NCBI GenBank assembly: GCA_037444445.1
Contig: JBBIMK010000009.1
Location: 1 to 32,000 of the forward strand
From: a bacterium
Lineage (GTDB): Bacteria > UBP7 > UBA6624 > JBBIMK01
Direction of reading: 5' to 3'
Length of the DNA stretch: 32,000 nt
Both the position numbers and the translations under genes were made by a program. The notes under the pieces are model-generated. The model made no database searches. It was not told the DNA's origin and worked only from the letters and a program-made list of their open reading frames with translations. This document shows, one piece after another, positions 1,240 to 32,000 of the stretch. Numbering within the stretch: the first letter of the stretch is position 1; each line of letters opens with the position of its first letter.

Positions 1240-3558
1240 TTATCCGCAGTTGGAATAGCCGCAGGAATAGCATTTGGCACAACCTTCACTCATCACGAGG
1301 ATTCCGCCGCAGTCGGGACACAGGTCCGGGTCTGCCTTTTTCCCTTTGGTTTCCCCCGAACGATTGGAAGATTTGATTTCAGGTTCTTCTAACTGGAAGA
1401 GGAGAGCGTTGCTATCACCATTCAGCCCCAGATACTTTTCAATGGCTTTGGCGATGGCATCCGGAATGGAGTGGGTGATGGAGCCATCCTCCTGGCGTTT
1501 GGACATAATACTGCGTATGCCTTTGAGTTGTTCAATGACATCATCGGGGCGGAGGCCGGAGCGGAAGGCGAGGGAAATGAGCCTGCCAACGGCTTCCGTC
1601 AGGGAAGCCAGGGCAGAACCGGTTTTCCCGATGTTAGCGAAGACTTCAAAGATGCCCTTCTCATCTTCATTGATGGTGATATAGAGGTGCCCTAATTCGG
1701 TGTCCATCTTAATGGTTTTTCCGGAGGTAATCTGGGGGCGGGGGCGGGGCTTCAATACCTTCTTCGTGCCCTCAAACTCCGTCTCTTTCGTCCCCACATT
1801 CAGAACCTGCTGAGGACGCGACCCATCCCGATATACGGTCACTCCCTTACAATGTAACCGGTAAGCCAGGTGATACGCTTTCCCAATGTCCTCCATCGTA
1901 GCGGAGTTGGGCAGGTTGATGGTCTTGGAAACGGACGAATCTACATACTTTTGCCCGGCTGCCTGAATCCTCACATGCTGTTCCGTGGGAATGTCAAAGG
2001 TGGTTTCAAAAATCGCCCGAATATAATCTGGAATCTCCTTCAATCCTTTGATGCTGGGGGCTTCACTGATTTTCCGGAATAAAGCCTCAGTGTAGAAACC
2101 CAATTCTTTGCTTGCCTGCAGGAAATAAGGATTGGCGTAATACAATTTCGTGCCTTCCATCACATGCTTCATCCACACGATGGAAAAATGGGGTTCAATC
2201 CCACTGGAAGCATCCGCAATCATAGAAATGGTGCCAGTGGGTGCGATGGTGTTCACGCAGGCATTCCTCATGGGCGTGCCCTTGAAAATACTATACTCTA
2301 TCCAGGGGAAAGACCCTTTCTGCTCCCCCAGCTTTCGGGAAGCCTCCCGGGCTTGCTCATACAACACTTTCATCAGTTCCTCACAGGCCTGAAGAGCATC
2401 CTCAGAGGAATAGGGAATGCCCATCAGATAAAGCAAATCGGCGAAACCCATAATCCCCAGGCCAATTTTACGAGTGTTCTTCGCCATGCGCTCAATCTCC
2501 TGTATCGGATACAGATTTGCGTCAATTACATTATCCAGGAAATGGGTGCAGAGGCGCACTATCTTCCCATACTCATTCCAGTCAAAGCGGTTACGGACTT
2601 CTTTCCACCGGGCGGGGCGTTTCTTCTCCAAATACCAGGGAGTTCCCGGGTAAAACTTCGCCACATGGATGGAGCCGAGATTGCACACTTCATACGGAAG
2701 GAGAGGCTGTTCTCCACACGGATTCGTGGCTTCAATCTGAAATTCTGGATGATGAACGGGTGTTGCCTCGTTCATTTTATCAATGAAAATCACTCCAGGC
2801 TCCCCGTTTTTCCATGCCTGATAGCATAGTTTATCAAAGACTTCTCGTGCCCTGAGCCTGCCAGTAGTTTGCCCGGTCCTCGGGTTAATCAGGTCATACT
2901 CCGTATCCTCTTCCACCGCCTCCATAAAGGCATCCGTGACCGCCACCGAGATATTGAAATTGGTGATTTCCCGAACATCATCCTTACAGGTGATGAATTC
3001 CAGGATGTCCGGATGGTCAACTCGGAGGATGCCCATATTGGCGCCTCTGCGTCTACCGCCCTGCTTGATGGCTTCCGTGGCGCCGTTAAAAACCTTCATA
3101 AACGAAACGGGGCCGGAGGCGACTCCGCCAGTGGTTTTCACCAGGTCGCCACGGGGACGCAGACGGGAGAAAGAGAATCCTGTTCCGCCACCCGTCTGGT
3201 GAACTTTCGCCGCATTCTTCACCGCCTCAAAGATTCCTTCAATAGAGTCTTCCACAGGAAGCACGAAGCAGGCAGATAACTGCCCGATTGGAGTCCCCGC
3301 ATTCATTAGCGTGGGCGAATTGGGCAGGAATTGAAAATTGGTCATCATCGTATAAAAACGGTGTGCCAGTTCCTCTATCTCTTCCCCGGTGGCGCCATAA
3401 TTTTTTTCCACATCCGCGATGGCTTTCGCCACCCGCCAGAATAACTCCTCCGGCGTTTCTACCACCTCTCCCCGGTCATCTTTTCTCAAATAGCGATTCC
3501 GAAGCACCGTCAGTGCATTTTCTGACACCTTTATCGGCTCTAATACCCCTTTTTCCAT
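1240..3558 (-). CDS. nrdJ: Class II (adenosylcobalamin-dependent) ribonucleoside-triphosphate/diphosphate reductase
   Basis: 772 aa. N-terminal VLRNRYL, SACFV, the active-site TNPCGEQPL motif and a C-terminal Cys-rich tail CPDCGG...CAKCYSCGYSNCG are typical of monomeric/dimeric NrdJ. SD AAGGAGGG lies 7 nt upstream of the ATG. Confidence 0.93.
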   Translation of the reverse strand: MEKGVLEPIKVSENALTVLRNRYLRKDDRGEVVETPEELFWRVAKAIADVEKNYGATGEEIEELAHRFYTMMTNFQFLPNSPTLMNAGTPIGQLSACFVLPVEDSIEGIFEAVKNAAKVHQTGGGTGFSFSRLRPRGDLVKTTGGVASGPVSFMKVFNGATEAIKQGGRRRGANMGILRVDHPDILEFITCKDDVREITNFNISVAVTDAFMEAVEEDTEYDLINPRTGQTTGRLRAREVFDKLCYQAWKNGEPGVIFIDKMNEATPVHHPEFQIEATNPCGEQPLLPYEVCNLGSIHVAKFYPGTPWYLEKKRPARWKEVRNRFDWNEYGKIVRLCTHFLDNVIDANLYPIQEIERMAKNTRKIGLGIMGFADLLYLMGIPYSSEDALQACEELMKVLYEQAREASRKLGEQKGSFPWIEYSIFKGTPMRNACVNTIAPTGTISMIADASSGIEPHFSIVWMKHVMEGTKLYYANPYFLQASKELGFYTEALFRKISEAPSIKGLKEIPDYIRAIFETTFDIPTEQHVRIQAAGQKYVDSSVSKTINLPNSATMEDIGKAYHLAYRLHCKGVTVYRDGSRPQQVLNVGTKETEFEGTKKVLKPRPRPQITSGKTIKMDTELGHLYITINEDEKGIFEVFANIGKTGSALASLTEAVGRLISLAFRSGLRPDDVIEQLKGIRSIMSKRQEDGSITHSIPDAIAKAIEKYLGLNGDSNALLFQLEEPEIKSSNRSGETKGKKADPDLCPDCGGILVMSEGCAKCYSCGYSNCG

Positions 3559-17771: not shown

Positions 17772-17807
17772 AATCCATTGCAAGATGACAGCGGAGGTGG
17801 TTTTATC

Positions 17808-19394
17808 GTGAAAAGGTTGGGGCAGTGGGCAGGAATTCTCGTTTCTATCGGTATCTGGTGCACCACCCTGTGGGCAAAACCCGGTCCCTTCCCCGATGTC
17901 CCCATCGACCACTGGGCTTATGACGCCGTGGAGTATCTGGCTTCCAAAGGTTTTGTGGAAGGATACCCCGATGGGGAGTTCAAGGGGGACCGGACGCTGA
18001 CCCGCTACGAGTATGCCATGATTATCGCACGAATGGAGCGAAAACTCCTTCAGGAACTCAAGGAAATGGCAGGGCCATCAGCGGAAATCCTCTCCATGAT
18101 TCAGCAGATGAAGGATGAATTCTCTGCTGAACTGGAGGATATTAAAGCCAAACTGGCTTCCCACGAGATGCGGCTGGAAGATTTAGAGACCCAGGTCGGT
18201 GGATTATCCCAGCGGACGACTGCTCTGGAGCAGAAGGTGGAGAAGCATGAAGAAATTCTTGCCGCTCTGAAAAAGATTGATGTCTCAGGCTCCGCTTCCT
18301 TTGATTATATCTGGGGAAGCGGGCAGAAATTTAATCCCACCCTTGCCGACTTCTCTCAGTCGGATGTGGACTTCTCCTTCGTTCTGGCTCTCCATATCCC
18401 TGTTGCCGAGACGGTGACCCTGGATTCTAAGGTAACCACCCTGGGACCACTGGGGACGACGAACATCTATGGCGGTGCTGGCACCGACCCTCCCCAGCCC
18501 TGCCCTCAGGGCATCGGCAAGCCCTTTGACCCCCTCGTTTCCTATAACTGCATCACCTACGGGAAATATGATGTTTTCCGCACCGGCGATTATCGCCTCC
18601 CCTCCACCAACGACCAGACGAACAAAAGTTTTGACCTGAATGAAGCCTACATCACCTGGACGAAGGATTGGGGAAATATTCAAGCCACCTTCTGGGGTGG
18701 GAAATTCAACCCCCACTGGTTTTCCTCCCCACTGTTCTTCAACCCTTACATCGGATACGAAGGCTTCGGCGCCATCTTCAACTGGAGAAAGAAATGGAAC
18801 CTGACGCTGGTAGATATGCGGACCGAGGACTTTACACAGGGTGCCCTCCCATCCCTTAATGACACGGACCTGGAATTGATTCAACTTTCTTCCCAGAATC
18901 GGGCGGTAAAAAATCTTGACTTCTCCTTCGGCTGGGTTTTCTCCAATACTTCCGACCTTCGCCAGGTCATCTCTGATTCCCCGGAAACCTTCCTCACCCA
19001 TCTGGCTTATCGGATTCCCTACCGCCGCCCGCTGAAAATCTATGCCGCATTCGCTTCCAACGGTGAAGAATTCCGTGGCCCTCCCAATGCCAGCACGGAT
19101 TACGCCGATGACATCTTCGCCAACTCCTGGATGATTGGAGTGAAACTCCGAAAAGCCGAAAATATTCGGGATTGGGCTCTGGATGTCAACTGGAAGGATG
19201 TGGGGCTGAACACGGGCTTGCCCGGCTACTTTACCCCGGATACGAAATTCCTCACCGCTACCTTTTCCTACCGGGCGGCTAAAAATACCCTCTGGAGCCT
19301 CCGCATTGATTCCGGCACCTTCGGTGATAATGCCAGCATCCCCCGAGAGCCTACCGTTACCTCCTTCACCACAGGCGTCACCACCACCTTTTAA
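17808..19394 (+). CDS. SLH-domain outer-membrane porin (OmpM/SlpA/Som-like: signal peptide, SLH domain, coiled coil, beta-barrel)
   Basis: Signal peptide VKRLGQWAGILVSIGIWCTTLWA. SLH motif FPDVPIDHWAYDAVEYLASKGFVEGYPDGEFKGDRTLTRYEYAMIIARM. Heptad-rich linker (about aa 90-160). Alternating aromatic-rich barrel region ending in a C-terminal F (...GVTTTF). Track start TTG 17778; GTG 17808 is preferred on SD and signal-peptide grounds. Confidence 0.8.
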   Translation: MKRLGQWAGILVSIGIWCTTLWAKPGPFPDVPIDHWAYDAVEYLASKGFVEGYPDGEFKGDRTLTRYEYAMIIARMERKLLQELKEMAGPSAEILSMIQQMKDEFSAELEDIKAKLASHEMRLEDLETQVGGLSQRTTALEQKVEKHEEILAALKKIDVSGSASFDYIWGSGQKFNPTLADFSQSDVDFSFVLALHIPVAETVTLDSKVTTLGPLGTTNIYGGAGTDPPQPCPQGIGKPFDPLVSYNCITYGKYDVFRTGDYRLPSTNDQTNKSFDLNEAYITWTKDWGNIQATFWGGKFNPHWFSSPLFFNPYIGYEGFGAIFNWRKKWNLTLVDMRTEDFTQGALPSLNDTDLELIQLSSQNRAVKNLDFSFGWVFSNTSDLRQVISDSPETFLTHLAYRIPYRRPLKIYAAFASNGEEFRGPPNASTDYADDIFANSWMIGVKLRKAENIRDWALDVNWKDVGLNTGLPGYFTPDTKFLTATFSYRAAKNTLWSLRIDSGTFGDNASIPREPTVTSFTTGVTTTF

Positions 19395-21260: not shown

Positions 21261-22577
21261 TCAGTCTACCTCTTTTCTCTTCACGCCTTCTTTCAAGGAA
21301 TGAGCGTCAACGCTGTGGATGATGTGCTCAAAATCAGGGCTCCACTGAGAAGTATGGCACTGCCGGCATTGAGTCCTGCGAGGCACGCTTACTTTCACCG
21401 AGGGATTCAGGGTATGCGGAAGTGCAGGATTATGACAGGCTTCACATTGCACATTGATGAAGGTGGGCGTGTCTTTGATGTTCATAAACCCACCCGGTTT
21501 CCCAAATCCCAGAGTATGGCAGGTAAGGCATTCGGGGTTATATTCATCCCGTGTGGGAATAAGAGAATTGATGGCGCGAGCGTGGCGGGAAGAAACCCAC
21601 ATTTCATAGATTTTCTCGTGACAGCGCCGGCAGGAGAAAGCACCGGAATAATCTTTAGGTTTCCACCCCCGGCTTAACCCCAGGATTTCCCGCTGTTTCA
21701 TATACTCTTCCAGTAGAGGCAGAAGGGTCTTTGCATCTTCCTGCGTAGCCTTCACTGGATGCCATTTCACCTGCAGTTGGACAATGCTCCCGGCACGGAT
21801 TAGCATCACCAGCTCCGCCACCCCGAGTTGTGTCGCATTCCAGGACAGGATATGCACTTTACCGTATGATTTTGCGACGACAGGGGTATCTTTCTCCCGC
21901 ATATCAGGAATGCTTCCCAGAACCAGGTCCACCTCTGGATACTGGTTGAGCCATTTCATCACATCCTTCAGCCTGCTCTCGTGAACCAAAAGGGCGAGGA
22001 GATTACTTTCTGCTTTCAGCGTTTGCATGGCTTCTTCTAATTGTTGGGGATTTAGTGTAACATCCCCCATAGAAGGAATGCTTTTGGGGATGGCAGTAGC
22101 CACTCCGAGGACAAGTCCTCTACCAATCTCCTTTTTATAGATTCGGGGCAGGGTAGGGGATTCAATGTAAGTTCCGACAGCGGTGCACTTGCCTTCGGAC
22201 AGGGATGTCAGGATGCGGGCGCTGGTGAGAATTTCCTGCGGCCCCAGGGCGCAAACATCCACCCCTGCATCATCAAAACCCTGCCGAAATAGAGCGGCGC
22301 TCTGCTTCGCCATCACCAGGTCAGGCGGCAAAAAATTCCCCCCCTCCAGCGTAACCTGGATATTTCCCGCAGAGCGGAGCTCCTTTACTATCGCTACCTC
22401 TTTTACCCACCCACCCCCCGAACCAGAACTCAGGATTCTTCCGTCCTCCCCATAAAGCCAGAGAAAACGAACAGTTTCTGACCTGTAAATGCTACAGGTG
22501 GAAAGGACGAAGAAAATCAGGAAATAACGGCGTCTCCACAACAGATTCACGGGCAATGTTCCATTCCTGCTACCCAT
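21261..22577 (-). CDS. Membrane-anchored/secreted fusion: degenerate 5'-nucleotidase/metallophosphoesterase-like domain + C-terminal tetraheme cytochrome c (c554-like)
   Basis: 438 aa. N-terminal anchor RRRYFLIFFVLSTCSIY. Four CxxCH motifs: CRRCH (aa 316), CLTCH (350), CEACH (378), CRQCH (404), with W..S.HA and NVQCE.CH spacing typical of the c554/multiheme family. The N-terminal 300 aa follows the UshA-like strand/helix pattern. Confidence 0.8.
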   Translation of the reverse strand: MGSRNGTLPVNLLWRRRYFLIFFVLSTCSIYRSETVRFLWLYGEDGRILSSGSGGGWVKEVAIVKELRSAGNIQVTLEGGNFLPPDLVMAKQSAALFRQGFDDAGVDVCALGPQEILTSARILTSLSEGKCTAVGTYIESPTLPRIYKKEIGRGLVLGVATAIPKSIPSMGDVTLNPQQLEEAMQTLKAESNLLALLVHESRLKDVMKWLNQYPEVDLVLGSIPDMREKDTPVVAKSYGKVHILSWNATQLGVAELVMLIRAGSIVQLQVKWHPVKATQEDAKTLLPLLEEYMKQREILGLSRGWKPKDYSGAFSCRRCHEKIYEMWVSSRHARAINSLIPTRDEYNPECLTCHTLGFGKPGGFMNIKDTPTFINVQCEACHNPALPHTLNPSVKVSVPRRTQCRQCHTSQWSPDFEHIIHSVDAHSLKEGVKRKEVD

Positions 22578-22621: not shown

Positions 22622-22870
22622 TCAGTGTTCTATATCCTCTCGGGCTTCCCAGTAAGGGCAGTAGAAGGGATGGTCCTGAAGGAGCACCCGTCCATCAGAG
22701 TTTCTCATCACCGGCTCCATCATCGGATATTCCTCTCGCTTCCATCCTAAAAGATGGCAGGTTTCCTCTACACACAAAGTATCCTCCAGCCCTTGAACAG
22801 CATACCCGCGCTCTTGAATCTCAAAATGTCTGCAGTTGATGCAGTGCTGAAGGATGGGTTTCATACCCAT
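22622..22870 (-). CDS. Small Cys-rich hypothetical protein (82 aa) translationally coupled to fbp
   Basis: ATG 22870-22868 shares one base with the fbp TGA stop (TGATG on the minus strand). HCINCRHF...LCVEETCH...FYCPYW gives CxxC + CxxxxC + one further Cys. No family recognised. Confidence 0.45.
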   Translation of the reverse strand: MGMKPILQHCINCRHFEIQERGYAVQGLEDTLCVEETCHLLGWKREEYPMMEPVMRNSDGRVLLQDHPFYCPYWEAREDIEH

Positions 22871-23970
22871 CAGGATTCTTTCTGAAACCGGTCCTTCAGC
22901 CTTTCAATAATTTGTGGGATGGTGGTGTATTCCATATTGGGAAGGGAAAGGCGGTGGGGTTCAAAAGGTCCATGAAGGCGCATATAAGAGGCAATTTCAC
23001 CGGCAAAATAGCGGGAATTGTCAAAGGCAGGGTCGTCAAACAGGTCCACAGGACCCACCAGTTGCCCATTCGCCAGTTGAAATCCTGCAGAAATCACCCG
23101 GGGAGGTCCGTCAAATCGGCTGGTCTGGGCTTCCCGAAAGGGCACGGGGAAAAGGGGTCCAAAGTGGCTCCCCCGATTCCACCCTTCCACCAGATGAGGG
23201 AAGGCAAAGGCTTCCAGGATTTCCCCCACAGCAGGCAACCCGGCTTGCGCCCGAACTATCAGAACCGGGTCATCCTTCCCTACATACTTCCCCGCTATCA
23301 AAGCAAGTTTCTGCGTGGAGGCAGAGGCGCAAACCATTCCACCTCTGGTGAATACCTTCCGGACAAGATACCGCTCCACTGCTCCAATCAATGCCAGCAA
23401 ATCATACATCTCTTCCGGGCAGTTGAGGCGAATGCTCTGATTTTCTTCTATATCCAGGATTTCAAACTGGAAGCCATCGTGCATTTTGGGGTCAATCACC
23501 AGGCCAGCGGTGCAGAAAGGGTCGGCAAACATACGATATACAGGAAGATTCCAGGCGCCCGGTGAACATTTATCCCCCATAAAAATCACCACCGGCTCTG
23601 ATGGGCGTTCCTCTATTTCCATCTCCGCTACCCCCGGTCCTAAACCTTTCACATTCCCGCTGAAGGCATCTTTCAGAAGGTCCTGCCCTGCCCCATACAA
23701 CTTCAACTCCTTCGCCACCTCCGTGCATCCGACAAAAGTATCCCAGGCGATTTTGTGAATCTGCTCGCTATTTTCACCCATTTTATGAGTGAGAATCAAT
23801 TCCAGGTCATCCCCGCAGGACATCACACAAAAATCAACAAGAACCCCTTTTTCCTTGTGAGCCTGAAGTTGCTCCTCAGCGGTGTCAATCAGGTCTTCGT
23901 GGATATGCGAGTGCCCCACATACCCCCCCACATCTGCTTTAATCACACTCAGCGTTATTTTTTCAGCCAT
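22870..23970 (-). CDS. fbp: Bifunctional fructose-1,6-bisphosphate aldolase/phosphatase (class V FBPase, archaeal type)
   Basis: MAEKITLSVIKADVGGYVGHSHIHEDL... is the hallmark N-terminus of FBP aldolase/phosphatase, and the length of about 366 aa fits. SD AAGGAGGG lies 7 nt upstream of ATG 23970. The track start at 24090 adds 40 aa that are not family-like. Confidence 0.9.
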   Translation of the reverse strand: MAEKITLSVIKADVGGYVGHSHIHEDLIDTAEEQLQAHKEKGVLVDFCVMSCGDDLELILTHKMGENSEQIHKIAWDTFVGCTEVAKELKLYGAGQDLLKDAFSGNVKGLGPGVAEMEIEERPSEPVVIFMGDKCSPGAWNLPVYRMFADPFCTAGLVIDPKMHDGFQFEILDIEENQSIRLNCPEEMYDLLALIGAVERYLVRKVFTRGGMVCASASTQKLALIAGKYVGKDDPVLIVRAQAGLPAVGEILEAFAFPHLVEGWNRGSHFGPLFPVPFREAQTSRFDGPPRVISAGFQLANGQLVGPVDLFDDPAFDNSRYFAGEIASYMRLHGPFEPHRLSLPNMEYTTIPQIIERLKDRFQKES

Positions 23971-24004
23971 CCGGCATCCCTCCTTTCGTTCTTCGTCCAT
24001 ACTC

Positions 24005-24013
24005 ATTATAACA
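24005..24013 (-). promoter_or_regulatory. Extended -10 promoter element TGTTATAAT for fbp
   Basis: Minus strand TGTTATAAT (plus 24005-24013). The predicted start is about 28 nt upstream of ATG 23970. The -35 element is poor (GCGAAC). Confidence 0.45.
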
Positions 24014-24385
24014 AATTGTGGATGAGCGTTCGCAGTAACCCGCCCGAGATTTTTCCTCACTCTATGAAATGAAACTTTATCCCGACCCACTCGTGATTCC
24101 TGAAACCAGGTATGTCATTTTCTGATTATTCCTATTGTCTACTTCCTGAATTTCGTGGTTGAGGATATTCCTCACCTCCTTTCCATAAGAGGAATGGAAG
24201 AATACGCACGAGGGATTTTACCTGACCATTTGACTTTGGAATAATTTTGTAGTCATATTATCGTGCTCATGCTATGAGATTTGATAAGGGAAAGAGGAAG
24301 CCTTTTATGACAATGAGGGGGCAGGGAGAAAGTGGTAGGGTGCCGGGTTTTATCTCCTCCTTATGCCTTTGCTTTTCTATATCTA

Positions 24386-24502: not shown

Positions 24503-26923
24503 ATGAAGCGAGGGAAGGTGGGAATTCTGCTGAAGGCAATCTGGGGCGCCTTCCTGTTGTATGCACTTTTTTCCTGCGGCGGAGGGGGTTCCGCTACTAC
24601 ACCTGCGCCTGCGGCCCGAAGCCAGAAAATAATAGTGCCGTTTTCGGCGGGAAGAGGTGGTTTGCCGAGCAGCTCCCATAGAACTGCAATGACGAACCCG
24701 GCTGAGAATGCGACAGATACAACCAGCTCATCCCTGCCTCCAGCGACCCTGACACAGGAAGGTTTGCTGGAAGGACCGCCGGATTGGCGAGTCAACGAGC
24801 ATCTTCCCTCTGTCCCGTTCCCGGAGTCGTTTCTCTGGGAGTTTGTGGATTCCCGGGGCCGCGCTTTCACGGAAACCGGCAGGGCTCACATAAATGTGCG
24901 GGAGTTCGGGCTTGTCCTCAGGGACTCCACGACACTGTTTCAATTGTCAGAACTGCTTCACCTCACGGATGCGTCCATATTGGGCGCAAGCCCAAAGATG
25001 AAGATGCTTTTTGTGCGCCTCAAACAGCGACGGAATCTGGACGAATATCTCGCCTTGCTGAATCGTTTAGAAGAAGACCCCCGAGTGGAGAGGGTGATTC
25101 CGCAAGTGACTGTGTACAAAGCCTCAGCGCTCGTTCCTACTGATGAAGCAGACTGGCGCTGGGAAGTCAGTCCAGGTGGAGGCAACTGGAATTTTGAGGC
25201 AGTAAGAGTGCCCCAGGCATGGAGCCTTATGGGCTGGATTTACAGGAGACAGAATCTGGTCACCGGGGGCATCGTAGACGAGGGTTTTTTCCTTCACCCA
25301 GACCTCTCAATGAACCATGAGGAATTGAACGGTGCCAATCCAAGACTTGACAATCATCATGGAACCGGAGTTGCTGGAGTGTGGGCTGCCCTATGGGGCT
25401 CCACCGTGCAACAGAGATGGCTGGACGGAGTGCTACCGAACTCTATTCTGACCCTGTGGGGTTTAACGGGGCGAAATGTGCCGCCCCGCGGACCCGGTGA
25501 CCCTCGCTGGCCCCCTCCCTGCGACATTTTCGGGCCCCAGGATGACTACGGCAAACAGTGTCTCTTCTGGCTCCAATTGTTAGATGACCTTTTCTCACAG
25601 AACAAGTTTCTGGACCTGCACCCGGAAATCAGCGTCCTGAATCTCAGCATCGGATATGGGTGTTTGTTCGCAGGCGATGCGGCGGATCCTCCCGGTAACC
25701 CTCCTGACGAGCGAGCCCGTCAAATCGCTGAGATGCTGGGCAGGGATTTTGCGCACCACTTCCAGAGCCGGGCAGACACTCTTCTACTGTTCCAGGCTGC
25801 TATGAACTGCTACCTGAGGCGCCTGGATGAAGCCGAGGACGATGCCCGCTGGAATTCTCCCTCCTGCTATGCGTCCATAGTGGGCGACCCCACCTCCAAT
25901 CCCCCTGTGCCACCCCAACAAAACATCATCTGCGTGGAAGCCACGAAGAACGCGGCGGGTTATCCGCTCGCCGGTTTCTCCAATGTGAGCGGGCAACTCT
26001 CCGCCCCGGGAAATAGCGTCACAGTATTGCTTGGAGTAGATGAAACAGCCGGGACTTCCGGCACATCCTATGCCAGCCCGCTATCCGCCGGTGCGGCATC
26101 CCTTCTGAAGTCATTCCGTCCGAGCCTGACGGTGACGCAGATTCGTCAGGCGCTTCTGACCTATTCCCGCTCCACGCCGGCAAACCAGCCTGAACCTCGG
26201 CGCGCACCGATGCTGGATGCCTTCTACGCTCTCACCGGGCTGGACCTGATGGCAGGAAATACCGATGTCCAGAGGGAACTGGTGGATGCGGATGATGGGA
26301 CGGTGGACGGGAACCTGCGGATGAGGGTATTCACCAGCGACCCGAACCCGGATGATGTTCACGCCATCCCGCCCGGAGGAACAACCCCAGACCACCGACG
26401 CGGGGACGGGTATGTGACCCCACGCGATTTCCGCACCTTCCGGGATGTCTTCCTTCAGGTTCGCTCTGTGGAGGATGCCAATCTCGCTCCGCTCATCTCT
26501 CTGGACGGTTCTGCGACGCATTTCAAGAGGGATTTGAATATGGACGGATGTTTGAGGGCGAGGGCGGATGCCTGCGACCCCAGCACCAATCCCTGCGTCC
26601 CCGCCAATCCCCCACACCCGGTGGACATCCCTACTCCCACCAACTGCTCGGCAGAAACCGGCGCTCCGGTGGAGAATGTCTATCCCCGGTATGATTTCAA
26701 CGGGGATGGGAGAATCACGGCTAATGCGGTCAATCCCGCCTCCGGCGATGTGGCGCCGTTCAAGATTGACCCGGACACCCACTGCACCGGGCTCAACCAG
26801 CCTGCCGGATGTCTGCGGGATATAGATGTGATGGCGCAGGTGTGGGATGCCTCTTCCTGCGAGCTTCCCGCCGGAGAATCAGCCGGTTGCCCGTCAGCAC
26901 TATATAGAGAATGTGGGCAATGA
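24503..26923 (+). CDS. Lipoprotein subtilisin-like serine protease (peptidase S8) with propeptide-like N-domain and C-terminal Ca-binding (dockerin/EF-hand-like) loops
   Basis: 806 aa. Lipobox LFSC (Cys25). Catalytic Asp in GGIVDEGFFLHPDL (D259), His in NHHGTGVAGV (H286), oxyanion Asn in VLNLSIG (N380), Ser in GTSGTSYASPLSAGAASLL (S522). DxDxDG-type loops: DADDGTVDGN, DLNMDGC, DFNGDGRITAN. Confidence 0.85.
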   Translation: MKRGKVGILLKAIWGAFLLYALFSCGGGGSATTPAPAARSQKIIVPFSAGRGGLPSSSHRTAMTNPAENATDTTSSSLPPATLTQEGLLEGPPDWRVNEHLPSVPFPESFLWEFVDSRGRAFTETGRAHINVREFGLVLRDSTTLFQLSELLHLTDASILGASPKMKMLFVRLKQRRNLDEYLALLNRLEEDPRVERVIPQVTVYKASALVPTDEADWRWEVSPGGGNWNFEAVRVPQAWSLMGWIYRRQNLVTGGIVDEGFFLHPDLSMNHEELNGANPRLDNHHGTGVAGVWAALWGSTVQQRWLDGVLPNSILTLWGLTGRNVPPRGPGDPRWPPPCDIFGPQDDYGKQCLFWLQLLDDLFSQNKFLDLHPEISVLNLSIGYGCLFAGDAADPPGNPPDERARQIAEMLGRDFAHHFQSRADTLLLFQAAMNCYLRRLDEAEDDARWNSPSCYASIVGDPTSNPPVPPQQNIICVEATKNAAGYPLAGFSNVSGQLSAPGNSVTVLLGVDETAGTSGTSYASPLSAGAASLLKSFRPSLTVTQIRQALLTYSRSTPANQPEPRRAPMLDAFYALTGLDLMAGNTDVQRELVDADDGTVDGNLRMRVFTSDPNPDDVHAIPPGGTTPDHRRGDGYVTPRDFRTFRDVFLQVRSVEDANLAPLISLDGSATHFKRDLNMDGCLRARADACDPSTNPCVPANPPHPVDIPTPTNCSAETGAPVENVYPRYDFNGDGRITANAVNPASGDVAPFKIDPDTHCTGLNQPAGCLRDIDVMAQVWDASSCELPAGESAGCPSALYRECGQ

Positions 26924-27722
26924 TTCCGGGGACGAAAACAATGACCCCTTTCAATGCGACTCCACCTGGAGGTGGCAGCCCCGCCGATACCTCCTTGCTG
27001 ACCGGAACAGCGACCAGAGAATAGATTACCTGTATTCCGTGGATTTACATTTTTCGGGGGCGGCGCTTCCCTCTTCAGGAGCCCCCTCTATTCTCATCGT
27101 TGTCAAATCCCGGATGCCGGATGGGAATAGGCAGGATGATGATGGAGATGGGATGATAGATGAACCCTATGACCGTTCCTTCACCCGGCACATTCGGATT
27201 CCTGCCAGTGAGTGGGCATCCCAGCGGCTGGTGCTCACCGTTCCTATCTATTCCCTCGTCGCACAGGACCCACCGCCGCCGGACCAGTTAGGGAGAATTC
27301 GTGTATCGGTCAAAGGGGTGAGCATCCAGCCTTCTTGCTGGGAATATTTCCCCCTTCATTACGGGCAGGATGTGGCGGTGCCGCCCCGGCAGGGCGTTGA
27401 CCCCGCCACCCCCTGCCCTTCCCCTCCCACCCGGGCCATACACCTCGGGGGTCCCAACGACCGGCTGTATAAAATCCTCACCTTACCTGACGGCGGTTAT
27501 CTGGCGGTGGGCGGCACCTACACAATGGCAGGTGGAACCCCACCAGATATGTGGGTTTTCCGGCTGGGAAGCGATGGCAATGTTGTGTGGGCGAAAGCCT
27601 ATGGAGACCCCCATATGGGCAACATTTATTTTGGCAAACAGGATAGCGCAACGACTGCCGCAATTATCCTTCAGGTTCCCTACAGACTCCAGCAAGCCTC
27701 TATAATAGCCAGAAGCCAATAG
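26847..27722 (+). CDS. Hypothetical protein or gene remnant: Ca-loop region plus a single beta-propeller-type repeat, with no signal peptide; possibly a frame-shifted continuation of the S8 gene
   Basis: Overlaps the S8 3' end by 77 nt in another frame. Contains DDDGDGMIDEPYD and one repeat, LPDGGYLAVGGTYTMAGGTPPDMWVFRLGSDGNVVWAKAYG (DGGY...G.D.W..k.d..G...W type), then terminates where a second repeat would be expected. An alternative start is GTG 26913. Confidence 0.4.
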   Translation: MPLPASFPPENQPVARQHYIENVGNDSGDENNDPFQCDSTWRWQPRRYLLADRNSDQRIDYLYSVDLHFSGAALPSSGAPSILIVVKSRMPDGNRQDDDGDGMIDEPYDRSFTRHIRIPASEWASQRLVLTVPIYSLVAQDPPPPDQLGRIRVSVKGVSIQPSCWEYFPLHYGQDVAVPPRQGVDPATPCPSPPTRAIHLGGPNDRLYKILTLPDGGYLAVGGTYTMAGGTPPDMWVFRLGSDGNVVWAKAYGDPHMGNIYFGKQDSATTAAIILQVPYRLQQASIIARSQ

Positions 27723-27850: not shown

Positions 27851-28456
27851 TTAAGGGTAATACTTGACCCGAACCCCTGCGAGGTAAGTGTCCACTATCG
27901 TTTTGGTTTTCAGGCTATTCGTCCGATAAACATAATATAACTGGTCTTTGATGTAAGGTTTAATACGCTCAAAAGTGAGTTCCGACGGCTTTAATCCGTA
28001 GGTCTTCATCAGAGTTTGGTTCCATACCTCTTTATTTTCCTCATAATATCTGCGAACCTCCTCATCCGTGGGCTCCAGCAGGGAACGAAAGAGAGCGTCT
28101 TTGAGCAATTGATTCCGGATATACTGGCGATAATCTTCGTCCGTTAAACCCCTTTCTTTCAGCCATTGCTGGTAGTGCTGGAGGTTCTGGAAGCGTTCCG
28201 AGATGTCTCGCGACAGGGCTTTATCCACCGTGGAATCCGAAACGCTGAAGCCCCGGGCGACCGCGGCGCGAACCAGGACAAAATCCTGCACATATTCGTC
28301 CAGAAACCGCTGGAATGATGGGTCCTTTACCAGGTCCTCGGTTAGTATAGGAACCTCGTTAATCCACAGTATTGGACGGGCAGTGGGCCCACGGCACGAA
28401 CCCCATAAAACAAAAAAGGCTATGACCCCCAGCGGTTTCAAAACCCTCATTTTCAT
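27851..28456 (-). CDS. SurA-N-terminal-domain-only periplasmic chaperone-like lipoprotein (no parvulin PPIase domain)
   Basis: 201 aa. Signal plus lipobox VLWGSC. INEVPILTEDL..., ...GFSVSDSTVDKAL..., FQNLQHYQQWLKERGLTDEDYRQYIRNQLLKDALF...EPTDEEVRRYYEENKE follows the SurA_N/PpiD/PrsA N-domain pattern. ATGA overlap with the upstream gene. Confidence 0.55.
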   Translation of the reverse strand: MKMRVLKPLGVIAFFVLWGSCRGPTARPILWINEVPILTEDLVKDPSFQRFLDEYVQDFVLVRAAVARGFSVSDSTVDKALSRDISERFQNLQHYQQWLKERGLTDEDYRQYIRNQLLKDALFRSLLEPTDEEVRRYYEENKEVWNQTLMKTYGLKPSELTFERIKPYIKDQLYYVYRTNSLKTKTIVDTYLAGVRVKYYP

Positions 28457-31284
28457 TTCTCCTCTCCCTCCTTAGAAATCGGGATAACCCCGGCATCCAG
28501 CCAGGGACTCCAGAAAAGTAAAAGACTGCCCCGCTCCATTGATGTCCCGCGATATGAAATTCTCATTCTTCTTTCCCCTTTTACTTCCTCCAGCCAGAGC
28601 ACCACCTCATTTCTCCCAATTTCCATGCCCTCCTCCGGGGTAAGACCTGTAATTCCATAAAATTCTACTCCTGTTGCATGGCGGATGTGAACACATAGAA
28701 AAGGGAGTGGCGCTCTTGGAACGAGGGAAAGGAAAAGAGAAGAGCCATTCACATCTGATTGAAATTCCGTTCTGACCTCCAGCAAAGAAGGAGAAAGGGA
28801 AGTGCAGGAGGCTGAGGTAGGCTTGCCCAGATGTCTATCGCGAAGGGCTTCCTCAGGAAACAGAGTGCACCGCACAGGAGGCTTTCCCTCTATCACGGGC
28901 TGAACCACAGAGCGGAGATAATCACTCATAGGGAAATTCGCAGGAAGCAGTGGAAGAGGAGAAATTTCAGAGGCTTTCTTCAGGAGAAAATGGAATGGGA
29001 AAGCCGATGGAAGAATAGAGAAAGTTTTCATTCCAGGGGGTCGCAGAAGAGAAAAAACAGCGGTGGCAAACGGACTGTAAGCGGTAGGTTCTTCCGGCAG
29101 GAAGGCACCGGCTTTCGCTACCACGCCCTCATCCACTGCCTGCCCTTTCTCCTGCAGCGCTCTTAAAGCCAGTAGCGCCCATGCGGTGGCCTCTACATTT
29201 CCCTTCTTCATCGTTCGCAAAAAATGAAACCCCCCGTCCGACTGTTGAAACCGATAAAGCCAGCGGAGCAGGATAGAGTCGGAAAATTCCCTATCCGGGA
29301 GGAAGGAACGGGTGAGCAAATTCAGAAACGAAAAATCTTCAGAGCCTGCAGAAGCCGTAGAGACTTCCGCAATAGATTGAGAAAACAGGAGCGGTTTCCC
29401 TTCCACTGAAAAGGCCCGGATGGTAATCGGCCAGGATGGGTCAACAGAATTCATCGGGAGAACCCTCTGGAATGAGGTTCTTTCGCCCTTCCGCAGGTCC
29501 ACCCGCACCGGCACATCGCTACGAACCACCAGAGTGGGGTCTGAAACTGTGGAGGGTAAAAAATCCGCCTCCAGCCTTTTCTCCTGAGTATCAGCGATGG
29601 AAGATAGGCGAACCTGAGTATAAATGCCCTCAGGAACCTGTAAAATTCGCGATGTGAATGCGTAAGAACCCCCCGCAGGCTCAATCAGGCTCAACCGATA
29701 ATAGCCCGGCGAAGGTGGTAGCGAGATCCGTGTTTTCTCATCACCTGAAATCGGCTGAAGCAAAAATGCTGATGACAGTCCAGAGGATGAAAAGACAAAG
29801 GTGGAGTGCTTTTCCACTCTCAGGGTGGAAAGAGGAAGGGGAGGTGGAGTTCCCCCAAGGAACTCCGTCAGGCGGAAGGAAGGAGGAGTCAGTAAAAGCC
29901 ATCCCTCTTCTACCTCCGGATGCTGAACCGTTAGCAGGGCTCCACCCAGAAGCACCTCCTCGGTCTGATAAGTCAAAGTCGGTGGCGGAATATTCGCCAC
30001 CGGCACGAAGGTCTGTTGAACCTGCAATCGGCCAGATTCCACCCATTCCTCACTCATCCAGAAGCCCGGTGCATAGGCTTCCGCAAGGGGCAGACGAACC
30101 TCCTGCCCCGGCTTGAAAATGCGAATGCCATCAGGCAAATAAAAATAAATCGTCTTGAAATCTGAAGGAGGCAAACTGTAAACCCCTCCGCTATTCAGGG
30201 AAGAATCTTCCTCTCCGGTGAACTTCCAGAAATACTCCTCTCCATCTCCTTCAAGCCAGACAAAAGAATAGGGGCTGGATACAGTGGATAAGGGGGGTGC
30301 AAGAGTTATTTTCCCCGAAGTCCGGGAGTCAAAAATTCGGGTGGACGAAATCCATTCCTTTTCTCCATCTTTTATTCCATACACCGCAACCTGAAAAGGC
30401 CGGGGTGCACGGGGAAAGTAACTCAATCCCTCGCCGTCCGAGGTTAACGGTGGAAGTAGAAGAAATCGGGAGGGCTGGATGATTTCCACCCTGTAAGGCT
30501 CCCTCCCATACCCCTCCAGTTGCACTTCAATTTCTTCATCAAAAGGCTGGGGAAGGTGAAAAAACTGGAGTAAGGAAGAAACGGGAGAAAAGTAGAACAA
30601 TCTCCGGGAAGAATCAAAAATCCTGAAAGAGCGGTGCTCTCCACCCCGCAGGAGTAAAGAAACTGCCCTCTCATCAACGGTATAGACCCCATCCGGAGAA
30701 ACGCCCTCAGGAGCCGATGGAATTTCTATCGGAAGTTCATCTATGTCTTGCCCTTTCTGAACCCTGAGGATAGAGCCTGCGGGAACCATATCCAGTGAAA
30801 CTTTTCCGCCTCCATCCGTTAGCCCGAATAGAAGTTTTTCCTGCTGGAAGAAGAGAGAAAAGGACACACTTCCCACCGGTTTTCCTGTTCTTCGCTCCAC
30901 CACTTCCAGATAGAAATATCGCCCTGTTGGGTGGAGTATCATAGATAGGGAAGTAATCAAAAATGTCCGAACCGCTTCGCAGGCGCCGGATTGGAAAATT
31001 GTGCGATAATATCCTCGTTCCAGGGGCTTCTTCAGCGGTCCCGGGAAGGGCCCGGAATAGAGAGACTCAAATCCTCCCTCATCCTCCAGAAATTCTCCCT
31101 CCCATTTTTCTACTTGAATCGTGAACGGTGGAGGGCAGGGAGGTTCACCCAGGGAAATCGTTTCACCGGGTGAAAAACGCCAGAGAGATGAAGCAGGGGT
31201 GGAAACAGAAGCCACAGAACCTGCCATTAGAACCGCTAACCACCAGAGTGGAATTCGTGAAATTGAAAATGGGAGGGGTGTCAA
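28453..31284 (-). CDS. Large secreted alpha-2-macroglobulin-like protein (beta-rich repeats, one TED-like alpha-alpha repeat, A2M C-terminal-like beta domain), no CxEQ thioester motif
   Basis: 943 aa. TTG start overlaps the HtrA-like stop (TTGA). Signal peptide IPLWWLAVLMAGSVASVS. RWLYRFQQSDGGFHFLRTMKKGNVEATAWALLALRALQEKG (plus about 29150-29260) is the A2M-TED/prenyltransferase-type repeat. C-terminus: LVPRAPLPFLCVHIRHATGVEF...GRNEVVLWLEEVKGERRMRISYRGTSMERG. The CDS itself is confident; the family call is moderate. Confidence 0.5.
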   Translation of the reverse strand: MTPLPFSISRIPLWWLAVLMAGSVASVSTPASSLWRFSPGETISLGEPPCPPPFTIQVEKWEGEFLEDEGGFESLYSGPFPGPLKKPLERGYYRTIFQSGACEAVRTFLITSLSMILHPTGRYFYLEVVERRTGKPVGSVSFSLFFQQEKLLFGLTDGGGKVSLDMVPAGSILRVQKGQDIDELPIEIPSAPEGVSPDGVYTVDERAVSLLLRGGEHRSFRIFDSSRRLFYFSPVSSLLQFFHLPQPFDEEIEVQLEGYGREPYRVEIIQPSRFLLLPPLTSDGEGLSYFPRAPRPFQVAVYGIKDGEKEWISSTRIFDSRTSGKITLAPPLSTVSSPYSFVWLEGDGEEYFWKFTGEEDSSLNSGGVYSLPPSDFKTIYFYLPDGIRIFKPGQEVRLPLAEAYAPGFWMSEEWVESGRLQVQQTFVPVANIPPPTLTYQTEEVLLGGALLTVQHPEVEEGWLLLTPPSFRLTEFLGGTPPPLPLSTLRVEKHSTFVFSSSGLSSAFLLQPISGDEKTRISLPPSPGYYRLSLIEPAGGSYAFTSRILQVPEGIYTQVRLSSIADTQEKRLEADFLPSTVSDPTLVVRSDVPVRVDLRKGERTSFQRVLPMNSVDPSWPITIRAFSVEGKPLLFSQSIAEVSTASAGSEDFSFLNLLTRSFLPDREFSDSILLRWLYRFQQSDGGFHFLRTMKKGNVEATAWALLALRALQEKGQAVDEGVVAKAGAFLPEEPTAYSPFATAVFSLLRPPGMKTFSILPSAFPFHFLLKKASEISPLPLLPANFPMSDYLRSVVQPVIEGKPPVRCTLFPEEALRDRHLGKPTSASCTSLSPSLLEVRTEFQSDVNGSSLFLSLVPRAPLPFLCVHIRHATGVEFYGITGLTPEEGMEIGRNEVVLWLEEVKGERRMRISYRGTSMERGSLLLFWSPWLDAGVIPISKEGEEK

Positions 31285-32000
31285 ATACTCCCGACCATGG
31301 CATCATCCGGCCGGTCAAACGGATAGACTTCAATTTCCGTCTTTTTCGCTTCCCGCAGAACCTGAAGTTTTAACTTATCATCCGGTCCTAACTGTCGGAT
31401 GTTCAGCGCCAGGTCTCGTGGACTTTTATACAGGATTTCCTCGGTCACCAATTGGCCAGCGGGGGATTGGCGCGTGAACTTGGCGCCCAGGATAATGTCA
31501 CCCACCCGAAGCCCACGCTTGGCCGCAGGTCCTTTGAGATCCACAGTATCCACGATAATTCCTGCATCCTTCTCTATCCATTCTTCAGGCATACCGGCGA
31601 AAATCCGAAGGAGTTTCGTGGTGGGTGAAGCGATGACCCCAAACCAGGGGTGATAGATTTTCCGTCCCGCAATTAAATCAAAAGCATACTGCCGAAGGTC
31701 ATTGGAAGGGAATACAATGTTCAAATTCTGCACTTCCCGCACCAGTTCTGTGGGAATGATAGTGGATTGCTCCACTGCCAGGGCATTGATGCCCAGCACC
31801 TCACCTCGCATATTCGCCAGCGGTCCTCCCAGATTGTATAGGTAAAAGCGAGCATCCGTCTGAATCACCTTCGGAACGAAGTAATCCCAGTTCATGTAGT
31901 AATCCCGAACGGAACTAATGACACCCACGGATGCGGCTACCGTTTCCCCCAGCGGATATCCGAGAGCCAGCACGGTTTCTCCCGCTTGAACTGCGGAGGA
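31281..32000 (-). CDS. HtrA/DegP-like trypsin-fold + PDZ protein, C-terminal part (extends beyond the right window edge); catalytic Ser replaced by Leu
   Basis: The frame is open to nt 32000 (SSAVQAGETVLALGYPLGE...). VIQTDARFYLYNLGGPLANMRGEVLGIN aligns with the HtrA motif IQTDAAINPGNSGGPL.N..GEVIGIN. PDZ region: GIIVDTVDLKGPAAKRGLRVGDIILGA. Track start GTG 31973 is internal. Confidence 0.8.
   Translation of the reverse strand, partial: SSAVQAGETVLALGYPLGETVAASVGVISSVRDYYMNWDYFVPKVIQTDARFYLYNLGGPLANMRGEVLGINALAVEQSTIIPTELVREVQNLNIVFPSNDLRQYAFDLIAGRKIYHPWFGVIASPTTKLLRIFAGMPEEWIEKDAGIIVDTVDLKGPAAKRGLRVGDIILGAKFTRQSPAGQLVTEEILYKSPRDLALNIRQLGPDDKLKLQVLREAKKTEIEVYPFDRPDDAMVGSI

Follow-up and report, generated by a model that had tools for sequence, protein, structure and literature searches.

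At the end of a 32,000-nucleotide (nt) window, which comprises positions 1 to 32,000 of the bacterial contig JBBIMK010000009.1, three consecutive genes lie on the minus strand, and these genes, together with the envelope cassette to which they belong, are the subject of the present analysis. The first is a partial open reading frame (ORF) at 31281..32000 (-), of which the 3' 239 codons are visible and which continues past the window end; it encodes HtrA-C, a degenerate paralogue of the HtrA proteases. It is followed by a 943-codon ORF with a TTG start at 28453..31284 (-), the product of which is a putatively exported, thioester-less protein resembling a small macroglobulin (referred to below as the mini-macroglobulin or the big protein), and by a 201-codon ORF at 27851..28456 (-), encoding a probable lipoprotein with a SurA/PrsA-type N-terminal chaperone domain (SurA_N) alone. 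Both junctions are 4-nt overlaps, namely a TTGA at 31281..31284 (-), where the HtrA-C stop and the TTG start of the big gene read ATT-TGA / TTG-ACA, and an ATGA at 28453..28456 (-), where the stop of the big gene and the SurA_N start read AAA-TGA / ATG-AAA. This layout had been described in an earlier note made from the letters of the window, and the ORF coordinates and the reading of the junctions bear it out. A purine-rich, Shine-Dalgarno-like run (GGAGGGAGAGGAG) lies 5' of the ATG of the SurA_N gene, scans for consensus promoters and terminators inside the three-gene region scored no better than the shuffled level, and the window yielded no Rfam families and no tRNAs.

The overlaps recur in orthologous loci recovered from other contigs (L001 to L006). 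The TTGA overlap is also present in L001 (9947-9950) and L003 (10001-10004), where it is kept though the big proteins of these two loci are only about 26% identical to each other, and overlaps equivalent to the ATGA between the big gene and the SurA_N gene are seen in L001, L003, and L006. The NCBI and JGI gene calls for the closest copies of the big protein start later, giving products of 924 and 926 amino acids (aa); the signal-peptide-like N-terminus of the 943-aa protein arises only from the TTG start, and the N-termini of the L001 and L003 big proteins resemble it. This predicted signal peptide (31186..31284 (-), approximately residues 1–33) was recognized by inspection from a basic residue, a hydrophobic stretch, and the sequence VSTPASS.

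The family of the big protein is extremely rare, and its members come with the same neighbors. A word-indexed search of 5.8 billion proteins returned the big protein itself, one relative at 79% identity, and nothing else, and an exhaustive hidden Markov model (HMM) search of 1.84 billion representatives returned five clusters of big proteins, which in this family measure about 850–940 aa. The distant homologues were missed by a second word-indexed search that used the family alignment (A2), further scans of genome contigs added no locus, and those of metagenome contigs returned only the L003 contig again. In every recovered locus the big gene is followed by a SurA_N-type gene, and in L001, L003, L004, and L006 it has an HtrA-like gene in front of it; in L002 and L005, where the contig starts within the big gene, what lies upstream is not visible. 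The conserved neighborhood that the earlier note had looked to is thus found wherever a contig reaches, and among the recovered loci of all five lineages the big protein is confined to it.

On longer contigs the three genes are the end of a cassette of seven, in the order Yip1-like membrane protein, BON lipoprotein, HtrA-A, HtrA-B, HtrA-C, mini-macroglobulin, and SurA_N lipoprotein. The full set was read in L001, which stems from a metagenome of the Chocolate Pots hot spring (PMC6137239), and in L003/L004, and the partial contigs L002, L005, and L006 (the last carrying an HtrA, the big protein, and SurA_N) agree within their reach. In L001 the order is groES, groEL, a 446-aa membrane protein, BON, HtrA proteins of 346, 397, and 381 aa, the big protein, SurA_N, and a fructose-1,6-bisphosphate aldolase/phosphatase (FBPase); in L003/L004 a 435-aa membrane protein, BON, HtrA proteins of 353, 393, and 382 aa, a big protein of 848 aa, and SurA_N are followed by enolase and pyruvate kinase, with the genes upstream of the cassette on the opposite strand. 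The 446-aa membrane protein of L001 is Yip1-like at E=9e-5, below the Pfam cut-off, and the BON protein resembles OsmY and DolP. Because L001 and L003 share an orthologous first cassette gene (35% identity over 421 aa) while the flanking genes differ, the unit is delimited to seven genes with variable flanks. Identities between the two loci amount to 74% for BON, 53% for HtrA-B, 47% for HtrA-C, 45% for HtrA-A, 35% for the Yip1-like protein, 32% for SurA_N, and 26% for the big protein. The cassette is a real, conserved, and rare hot-spring envelope cassette made of known kinds of parts. No description of this operon, of a BON/HtrA/SurA operon, or of the assemblies concerned was found in the literature, in agreement with the earlier impression that the combination is not a described one. 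The groES-groEL pair lies just upstream of the cassette and on the same strand in L001 (2729..4662) and is not found there in L003/L004; heat-shock co-regulation through it, if any, is possibly lineage-specific.

The visible 239-aa fragment of HtrA-C matches Trypsin_2 (E=4e-9, 37.7 bits; Pfam cut-off 27.6) and PDZ_2 (E=3e-7, 31.1 bits; Pfam cut-off 27), the latter over fragment residues 144–225 (31326..31571 (-)), with Do-family NCBIfam matches far under their cut-offs. Over its last 239 aa, the 381-aa protein of L001 is 95% identical to the fragment, and this full-length orthologue aligns to MucD, DegP, and HtrA structures with E down to 1e-30. At the position of the active-site GNSGGP of MucD and DegP, the window reads YNLGGP (31821..31838 (-); alignments to MucD and DegP-like structures and paralogue alignment A4), with a leucine codon in place of that of the catalytic serine at 31830-31832 (-). 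An HtrA-like protein with a PDZ domain and NLGGP instead of GNSGGP is accordingly what the earlier reading had proposed and what the profile matches and the motif confirm. The change of Ser to Leu is seen directly in the window, and in the alignment to solved HtrAs the L001 orthologue has Thr at the position of the catalytic His, Asn at that of Asp, and Leu at that of Ser. Since the catalytic triad is lost, the sequence marks the gene 1 product as a homologue of the HtrA/Do (MEROPS S1C) family that would be no protease. It is a real gene under purifying selection as strong as that on a housekeeping enzyme, the ratio of nonsynonymous to synonymous substitution rates (dN/dS) between the window and L001 being 0.05, as compared with 0.03 for the neighboring housekeeping FBPase.

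The three HtrA paralogues of the cassette all consist of a trypsin-like domain and one PDZ domain and have signal-type N-termini, and they follow a fixed dead-active-dead pattern, as determined from alignments to solved HtrA structures and from A4. In HtrA-A, His is replaced by Gln or Ser and Ser by Gln, with Asp kept; in HtrA-B the triad is intact, with His (in TNWHVV), Asp, and Ser (in GNSGG); and in HtrA-C, His is replaced by Thr or Asp, Asp by Asn, and Ser by Leu, Ile, or Arg. This pattern is identical in L001 and L003, and the C-type orthologues of L006 and the window agree with it. The HtrA-A and HtrA-B genes overlap by 4 nt in both L001 and L003, and the intact HtrA-B lies two genes upstream of the big gene in every long orthologous contig. 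While the three genes visible in the window are each non-catalytic, as had been observed, with protease Ser, thioester, and parvulin absent, the claim that the operon is made only of non-catalytic relatives is contradicted by the intact triad of HtrA-B in the orthologous loci; as the window breaks off within HtrA-C, no more than the three final genes of the cassette had been in view. Conserved hydrophobic C-termini are present in L001 (6529..9950) and L003 (6594..10004) on HtrA-B (GAGGT-I/L) and HtrA-C (YPF-D/E-R/K-PDDAxxG-S/T-I/V/F) and on HtrA-A there are none; these motifs might possibly act as intersubunit PDZ ligands.

The gene 3 product matches SurA_N_3 (28097-28318 (-); E=1.4e-8, 35.2 bits; cut-off 27.2) and ends at 201 aa without a parvulin/Rotamase domain, as only 17 residues reach into the beginning of Rotamase_2 and none of the stretches passes, so that the description of a SurA N-terminal domain lacking peptidyl-prolyl isomerase activity stands. 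Among the NCBIfam models, those of PrsA-like isomerases and of the Treponema chaperone TDE1658 ('MOSP complex formation') are matched weakly. A putative lipobox cysteine, Cys21 (28394-28396 (-)), follows a hydrophobic stretch by inspection; its context is non-canonical in the window (VLWGS-C21) and in L001 (FFSS-C), and other orthologues have canonical lipoboxes (LSG-C, LTG-C, LSG-C), which makes gene 3 likely to encode a lipoprotein. Of the export signals that the earlier note had named for genes 2 and 3, the signal peptide was thus recognized again, and the lipobox has its cysteine but not a canonical surrounding. The dN/dS of the SurA_N gene is 0.13 (window vs L001).

For the big protein, sequence and fold give different answers. 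Neither the 943-aa protein nor any of the six family members matches the Pfam/NCBIfam models of the alpha-2-macroglobulins (A2Ms), i.e. A2M, MG2, bMG, BRD, TED_complement, or A2M_recep, at E<=10, and the family profile, searched against the PDB sequences, returned nothing under E=0.7. The helical segment taken in isolation matches Prenyltrans (E=0.006), TED_complement (E=0.021), and SQHop_cyclase_N (E=0.035), all on the same repeat and all below threshold; because TED_complement does no better there than the other two, the "A2M-type TED repeat" of the earlier note is, as far as its sequence goes, a generic alpha/alpha-toroid repeat. Comparison with E. coli YfhM was not significant by BLASTP or by hhalign (probability 2–3%), the few weak local matches running collinear, and the matches listed by a search seeded with YfhM were all A2Ms with an identity of 83% or more. 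There is no CxEQ and no CxE anywhere in the 943 residues, as the absence of a thioester motif noted earlier requires. The protein has only five cysteines (at 50, 102, 806, 827, and 864), of which 50/102 and 806 with 827 are pairs conserved in the family (A2); these pairs and the signal-like N-terminus fit an exported protein. A P-S-P-G-x-Y motif at residues 523–529 is invariant in the family, and dN/dS is 0.23 (window vs L001). One distant homologue (A2) shows a weak match to BiPBP_C (E=0.027), the C-terminal domain of PBP1c; the gene of the latter, pbpC, adjoins Type I bacterial A2M genes, and the match is probably a generic beta-sandwich likeness. Two other identities were considered and rejected: an outer-membrane beta-barrel, which is disfavored by the sandwich-type strands, by the Cys pairs, and by the lack of an aromatic signature at the C-terminus, and a prenyltransferase or terpene cyclase, for which there is one sub-threshold repeat only.

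A medium-confidence AlphaFold2 (AF2) model built from the six family members has a mean predicted local distance difference test (pLDDT) score of 54.5, with confident blocks at residues 33–190 (pLDDT 70–89) and 830–930 (70–83), and is mostly beta to residue 608, helical at 653–820, and closed by a terminal beta-sandwich. When this model was compared with the PDB by Foldseek, the top 16 matches were all members of the A2M/TEP/complement superfamily (E 2e-17 to 3e-9), among them the E. coli A2M ECAM (5a42, E=2e-17), A2ML1, Salmonella A2M, CD109, TEP1r, human A2M, and C5, and generic immunoglobulin (Ig)-domain chains appeared only from about E=1e-8 to 3e-8. The ECAM NIE-MG1 fragment 4zjh aligned with a TMt of 0.52 and a root-mean-square deviation of 4.6 over 174 columns; global template-modelling (TM) scores were only 0.1–0.16. 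A control model, obtained by AF2 from a two-sequence alignment (pLDDT 29) and put through the same fold search, gave no match better than E=0.1. The A2M-like identity that had been proposed for this protein is therefore supported only at the level of the fold, by Foldseek on the AF2 model, and not at that of the sequence, where neither the HMMs nor hhalign against YfhM detect it.

The predicted layout begins with a pair of beta-sandwiches carrying the conserved Cys50/Cys102 (residues 35–190, 30715..31182 (-), pLDDT 70–89), on which we infer that the 4zjh match falls, the aligned query residues not being reported. A central beta-rich region with about four more sandwich-like domains (residues 200–608, 29461..30687 (-), pLDDT mostly 40–65) leads to the helical region (residues 653–820, 28825..29328 (-)), defined by AF2 helices and the sub-threshold repeat matches, which contains the single alpha/alpha-toroid-type repeat (residues 665–719, 29128-29292 (-)). 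With about 7–8 helices over some 170 aa, this region compares with about 300 aa and 12 helices in a complete TED. It includes a variable segment (residues 721–780, 28945..29124 (-), delimited by sliding identity and gap fractions) that is proline- and serine-rich, falls below pLDDT 50 from residue 750, is 57–80% identical between two close homologues, and is the least conserved part among close homologues; it is a candidate for a bait-like or dispensable loop. More generally, the low-confidence, variable residues 468–507, 609–651, and 721–829 are bait-region candidates only. A C-terminal beta-sandwich (residues 835–936, 28477..28782 (-), pLDDT 70–83) completes the protein, for which there is moderate evidence of a half-sized, thioester-less macroglobulin-like architecture with a truncated TED.

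Taken together, the cassette is best read as a dedicated, membrane-associated protease/chaperone/macroglobulin module for periplasmic proteostasis and protease control that would not be purely non-catalytic, a reading held with a confidence only slightly above the midpoint. HtrA proteases work as trimers or trimer multiples gated by PDZ domains, and the SurA core of N- and C-terminal parts keeps chaperone function without the parvulin domains. In the module as proposed, HtrA-A, HtrA-B, and HtrA-C would combine into trimers or larger assemblies of mixed composition; the two pseudo-subunits, each with a PDZ domain, would regulate or target the single catalytic one, and the complex would be held at the membranes by the Yip1-like protein together with the lipoproteins BON and SurA_N. 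Like the thioester-less Type II A2Ms, the mini-macroglobulin would cooperate non-covalently with the HtrA protease, whether as a cage, an adaptor, or a regulator, or might alternatively be matured by that protease, and the SurA_N protein may serve as a holdase. Several points weigh against this reading. Every sequence or profile test for A2M membership of the 943-aa protein is negative, and its A2M-likeness comes from one model in which 394 of the 943 residues fall below pLDDT 50; macroglobulin-type internal repeats were not detected by hhalign of sub-blocks of the sequence, the best result being a probability of 20% for residues ~75–95 against ~509–531. Compared with the known bacterial A2Ms, the big protein is about half as large, and it has a short TED-like part, of which some 60 residues (721–780) are absent in three of the five lineages (P0006-P0008). 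HtrA-B, HtrA-A, BON, and the Yip1-like gene are not seen in the window genome and are ascribed to it from the orthologous locus, which is 79–95% identical, and both hetero-oligomerization and the link between the macroglobulin and the HtrAs are drawn from co-conservation and coupling. In a stronger form, the cassette would encode a self-contained periplasmic protease machine of a new kind, in which a dedicated mini-macroglobulin gates the activity or the substrate access of an obligate HtrA hetero-oligomer (one catalytic and two pseudo-protease subunits), so that the two would be an endogenous protease-macroglobulin pair. The lipoproteins BON and SurA_N and the Yip1-like membrane protein would anchor it between the membranes, and the big protein, diverged beyond sequence recognition, would be smaller than any macroglobulin-fold protein known. 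As a whole, this form is improbable.

A different account would make the 943-aa protein the client of a dedicated SurA_N/HtrA/BON set, e.g. a fast-evolving sheath, S-layer-associated protein, or adhesin-like Ig array, with its A2M likeness being that of a generic string of beta-sandwiches. The big protein does evolve fastest in the cassette (26% identity, compared with 45–74% for most members, and the dN/dS given above), it carries no A2M signal in its sequence, generic multi-Ig proteins reach E~1e-8 in Foldseek too, the TDE1658 match of the SurA_N protein provides a precedent for a SurA-like factor that serves one envelope protein, and the organism appears to have an SLH-anchored outer-membrane protein. 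Against this stand the exclusively A2M/TEP/complement nature of the top 16 Foldseek matches, about nine orders of magnitude better than generic Ig chains, and the helical segment at the place where the TED sits; moreover, the 943-aa protein has no SLH, anchoring, or repeat signature, and a client would create no obvious need for two conserved pseudo-proteases. This account appears unlikely, though not negligible. The cassette could also be a functional grouping without a complex, in which the big protein is a stand-alone, Type II-like trap against foreign proteases and the HtrAs, BON, and SurA_N are co-regulated envelope-stress genes. Such a stress regulon would fit the position of groES-groEL directly upstream in L001, and bacterial A2Ms are thought to be periplasm defenders co-encoded with repair or partner proteins (PMC5764988). 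However, the groESL adjacency is not kept in L003, conservation extends to the 4-nt overlaps, all five lineages found among 1.84 billion representatives have the big protein in the cassette context and nowhere else, and general stress proteases would hardly account for a pair of strongly constrained HtrAs without a triad; we accord this grouping only a small probability, similar to that of the stronger form above.

Least probable is the proposal of the earlier note, namely a solely non-catalytic holdase or trap complex that guards the cell from the S8 lipoprotein protease encoded convergently at 24503..26923 (+). In its favor are the lack of protease Ser, thioester, and parvulin in the window genes and the intact-looking D/H/S motifs (VDEG, HGTG, GTSYASP) and LFSC lipobox of this subtilase, but the orthologous cassettes hold an intact-triad HtrA-B, and self-protection finds no support in L001, L003, L004, and L005, where the S8 gene is not beside the cassette.

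Among the known systems close to the module proposed here is that of Pseudomonas aeruginosa, with MagD and its operon magABCDEF (PMC5764988, PMC3735191). The Type II A2M MagD traps protease without a thioester, forms complexes with operon-encoded partners, and needs a partner for stability (PMC5764988); both it and the present protein are, in the latter case by prediction, exported macroglobulin-fold proteins without CxEQ, encoded in multi-gene operons with membrane-associated partners. They differ in length (~1500 aa for MagD, ~940 aa here), in that the present protein matches no A2M/MG/TED HMM and has a truncated TED-like part, in the partners, which are MagA, B, C, E, and F in one case and HtrA paralogues, BON, SurA_N, and the Yip1-like protein in the other, and in the hosts, which are proteobacterial colonizers as opposed to hot-spring metagenome lineages. 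The Type I A2Ms (E. coli YfhM/ECAM and Salmonella SaA2M) furnish the best Foldseek matches (5a42, 4u4j, 4u48) and are likewise located in the envelope, whereas the protein described here lacks the thioester, has half their length, and has no pbpC neighbor.

As in HtrA, DegP, DegQ, and DegS (S1C), all three cassette paralogues combine a trypsin-like domain with PDZ, and HtrA-B has the full triad; two of the three are, in contrast, triad-degenerate and yet strongly conserved, and a fixed dead-active-dead tandem is not a described HtrA operon. A partial parallel is found in magnetotactic bacteria, where the degenerate HtrA-type protein MamO has a non-proteolytic role beside the active MamE (PMC4794232). 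The cassette HtrA paralogues give weak NCBIfam matches to both MamO and MamE, but there is no magnetosome context here, and the pseudo-subunits are two in number and keep their PDZ domains. The gene 3 product shares the SurA_N-type domain with SurA, PrsA, PpiD, and Treponema denticola TDE1658 and would be a lipoprotein like PrsA; it differs from SurA, PrsA, and PpiD in its length of only 201 aa and in being without any parvulin domain.

The main interest of the locus lies in a dead-active-dead HtrA triplet coupled to an HMM-invisible mini-macroglobulin, a family that current HMM libraries miss entirely. If the proposed module is correct, it would connect two envelope systems hitherto studied apart, the quality-control proteases of the HtrA type and the macroglobulins of bacteria, and would provide a natural, fixed set of one active and two dead HtrAs that bears on PDZ-gated regulation of oligomers and on the origin of pseudo-enzymes. 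The macroglobulin fold would then include a form of ~900 aa, invisible to sequence models, in free-living hot-spring bacteria, which would weaken the view of bacterial A2Ms as mainly adaptations to host association.

The remaining genes of the window provide the context. The S8 gene overlaps a 291-codon ORF (26847..27722 (+)) with a weak delta-60-repeat match, an overlap that might reflect either a frameshift or a separate gene. These two lie between the SurA_N and FBPase genes in the window only; because the close relative L001 has 109 nt at that place, the pair appears to be a recent lineage-specific insertion or deletion, and in L003, L004, and L005 the SurA_N gene is followed by enolase with no S8 gene. 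Further downstream, and syntenic with L001, are the class V FBPase gene (22870..24090 (-); FBPase_3 in the L001 orthologue) and that of a multihaem cytochrome c554-like protein (21261..22577 (-)). The longest FBPase ORF in the window, of 406 aa with a GTG start, exceeds the 366-aa call of L001 by 40 codons, and its true start is probably internal. The 538-aa product of 17778..19394 (+) has an SLH domain at its N-terminus (E=6e-12), a coiled coil, and a C-terminal part with a weak likeness to porins, and resembles the SLH-anchored proteins in the outer membrane of deep-branching diderms; at 1240..3558 (-) a class II-type ribonucleotide reductase large subunit is encoded, with a C-terminal TSCPD and a barrel-domain match split in two stretches. 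The SLH-porin-like protein, the class V FBP aldolase/phosphatase, and the multihaem cytochrome suggest a diderm hot-spring bacterium as the source of the window.

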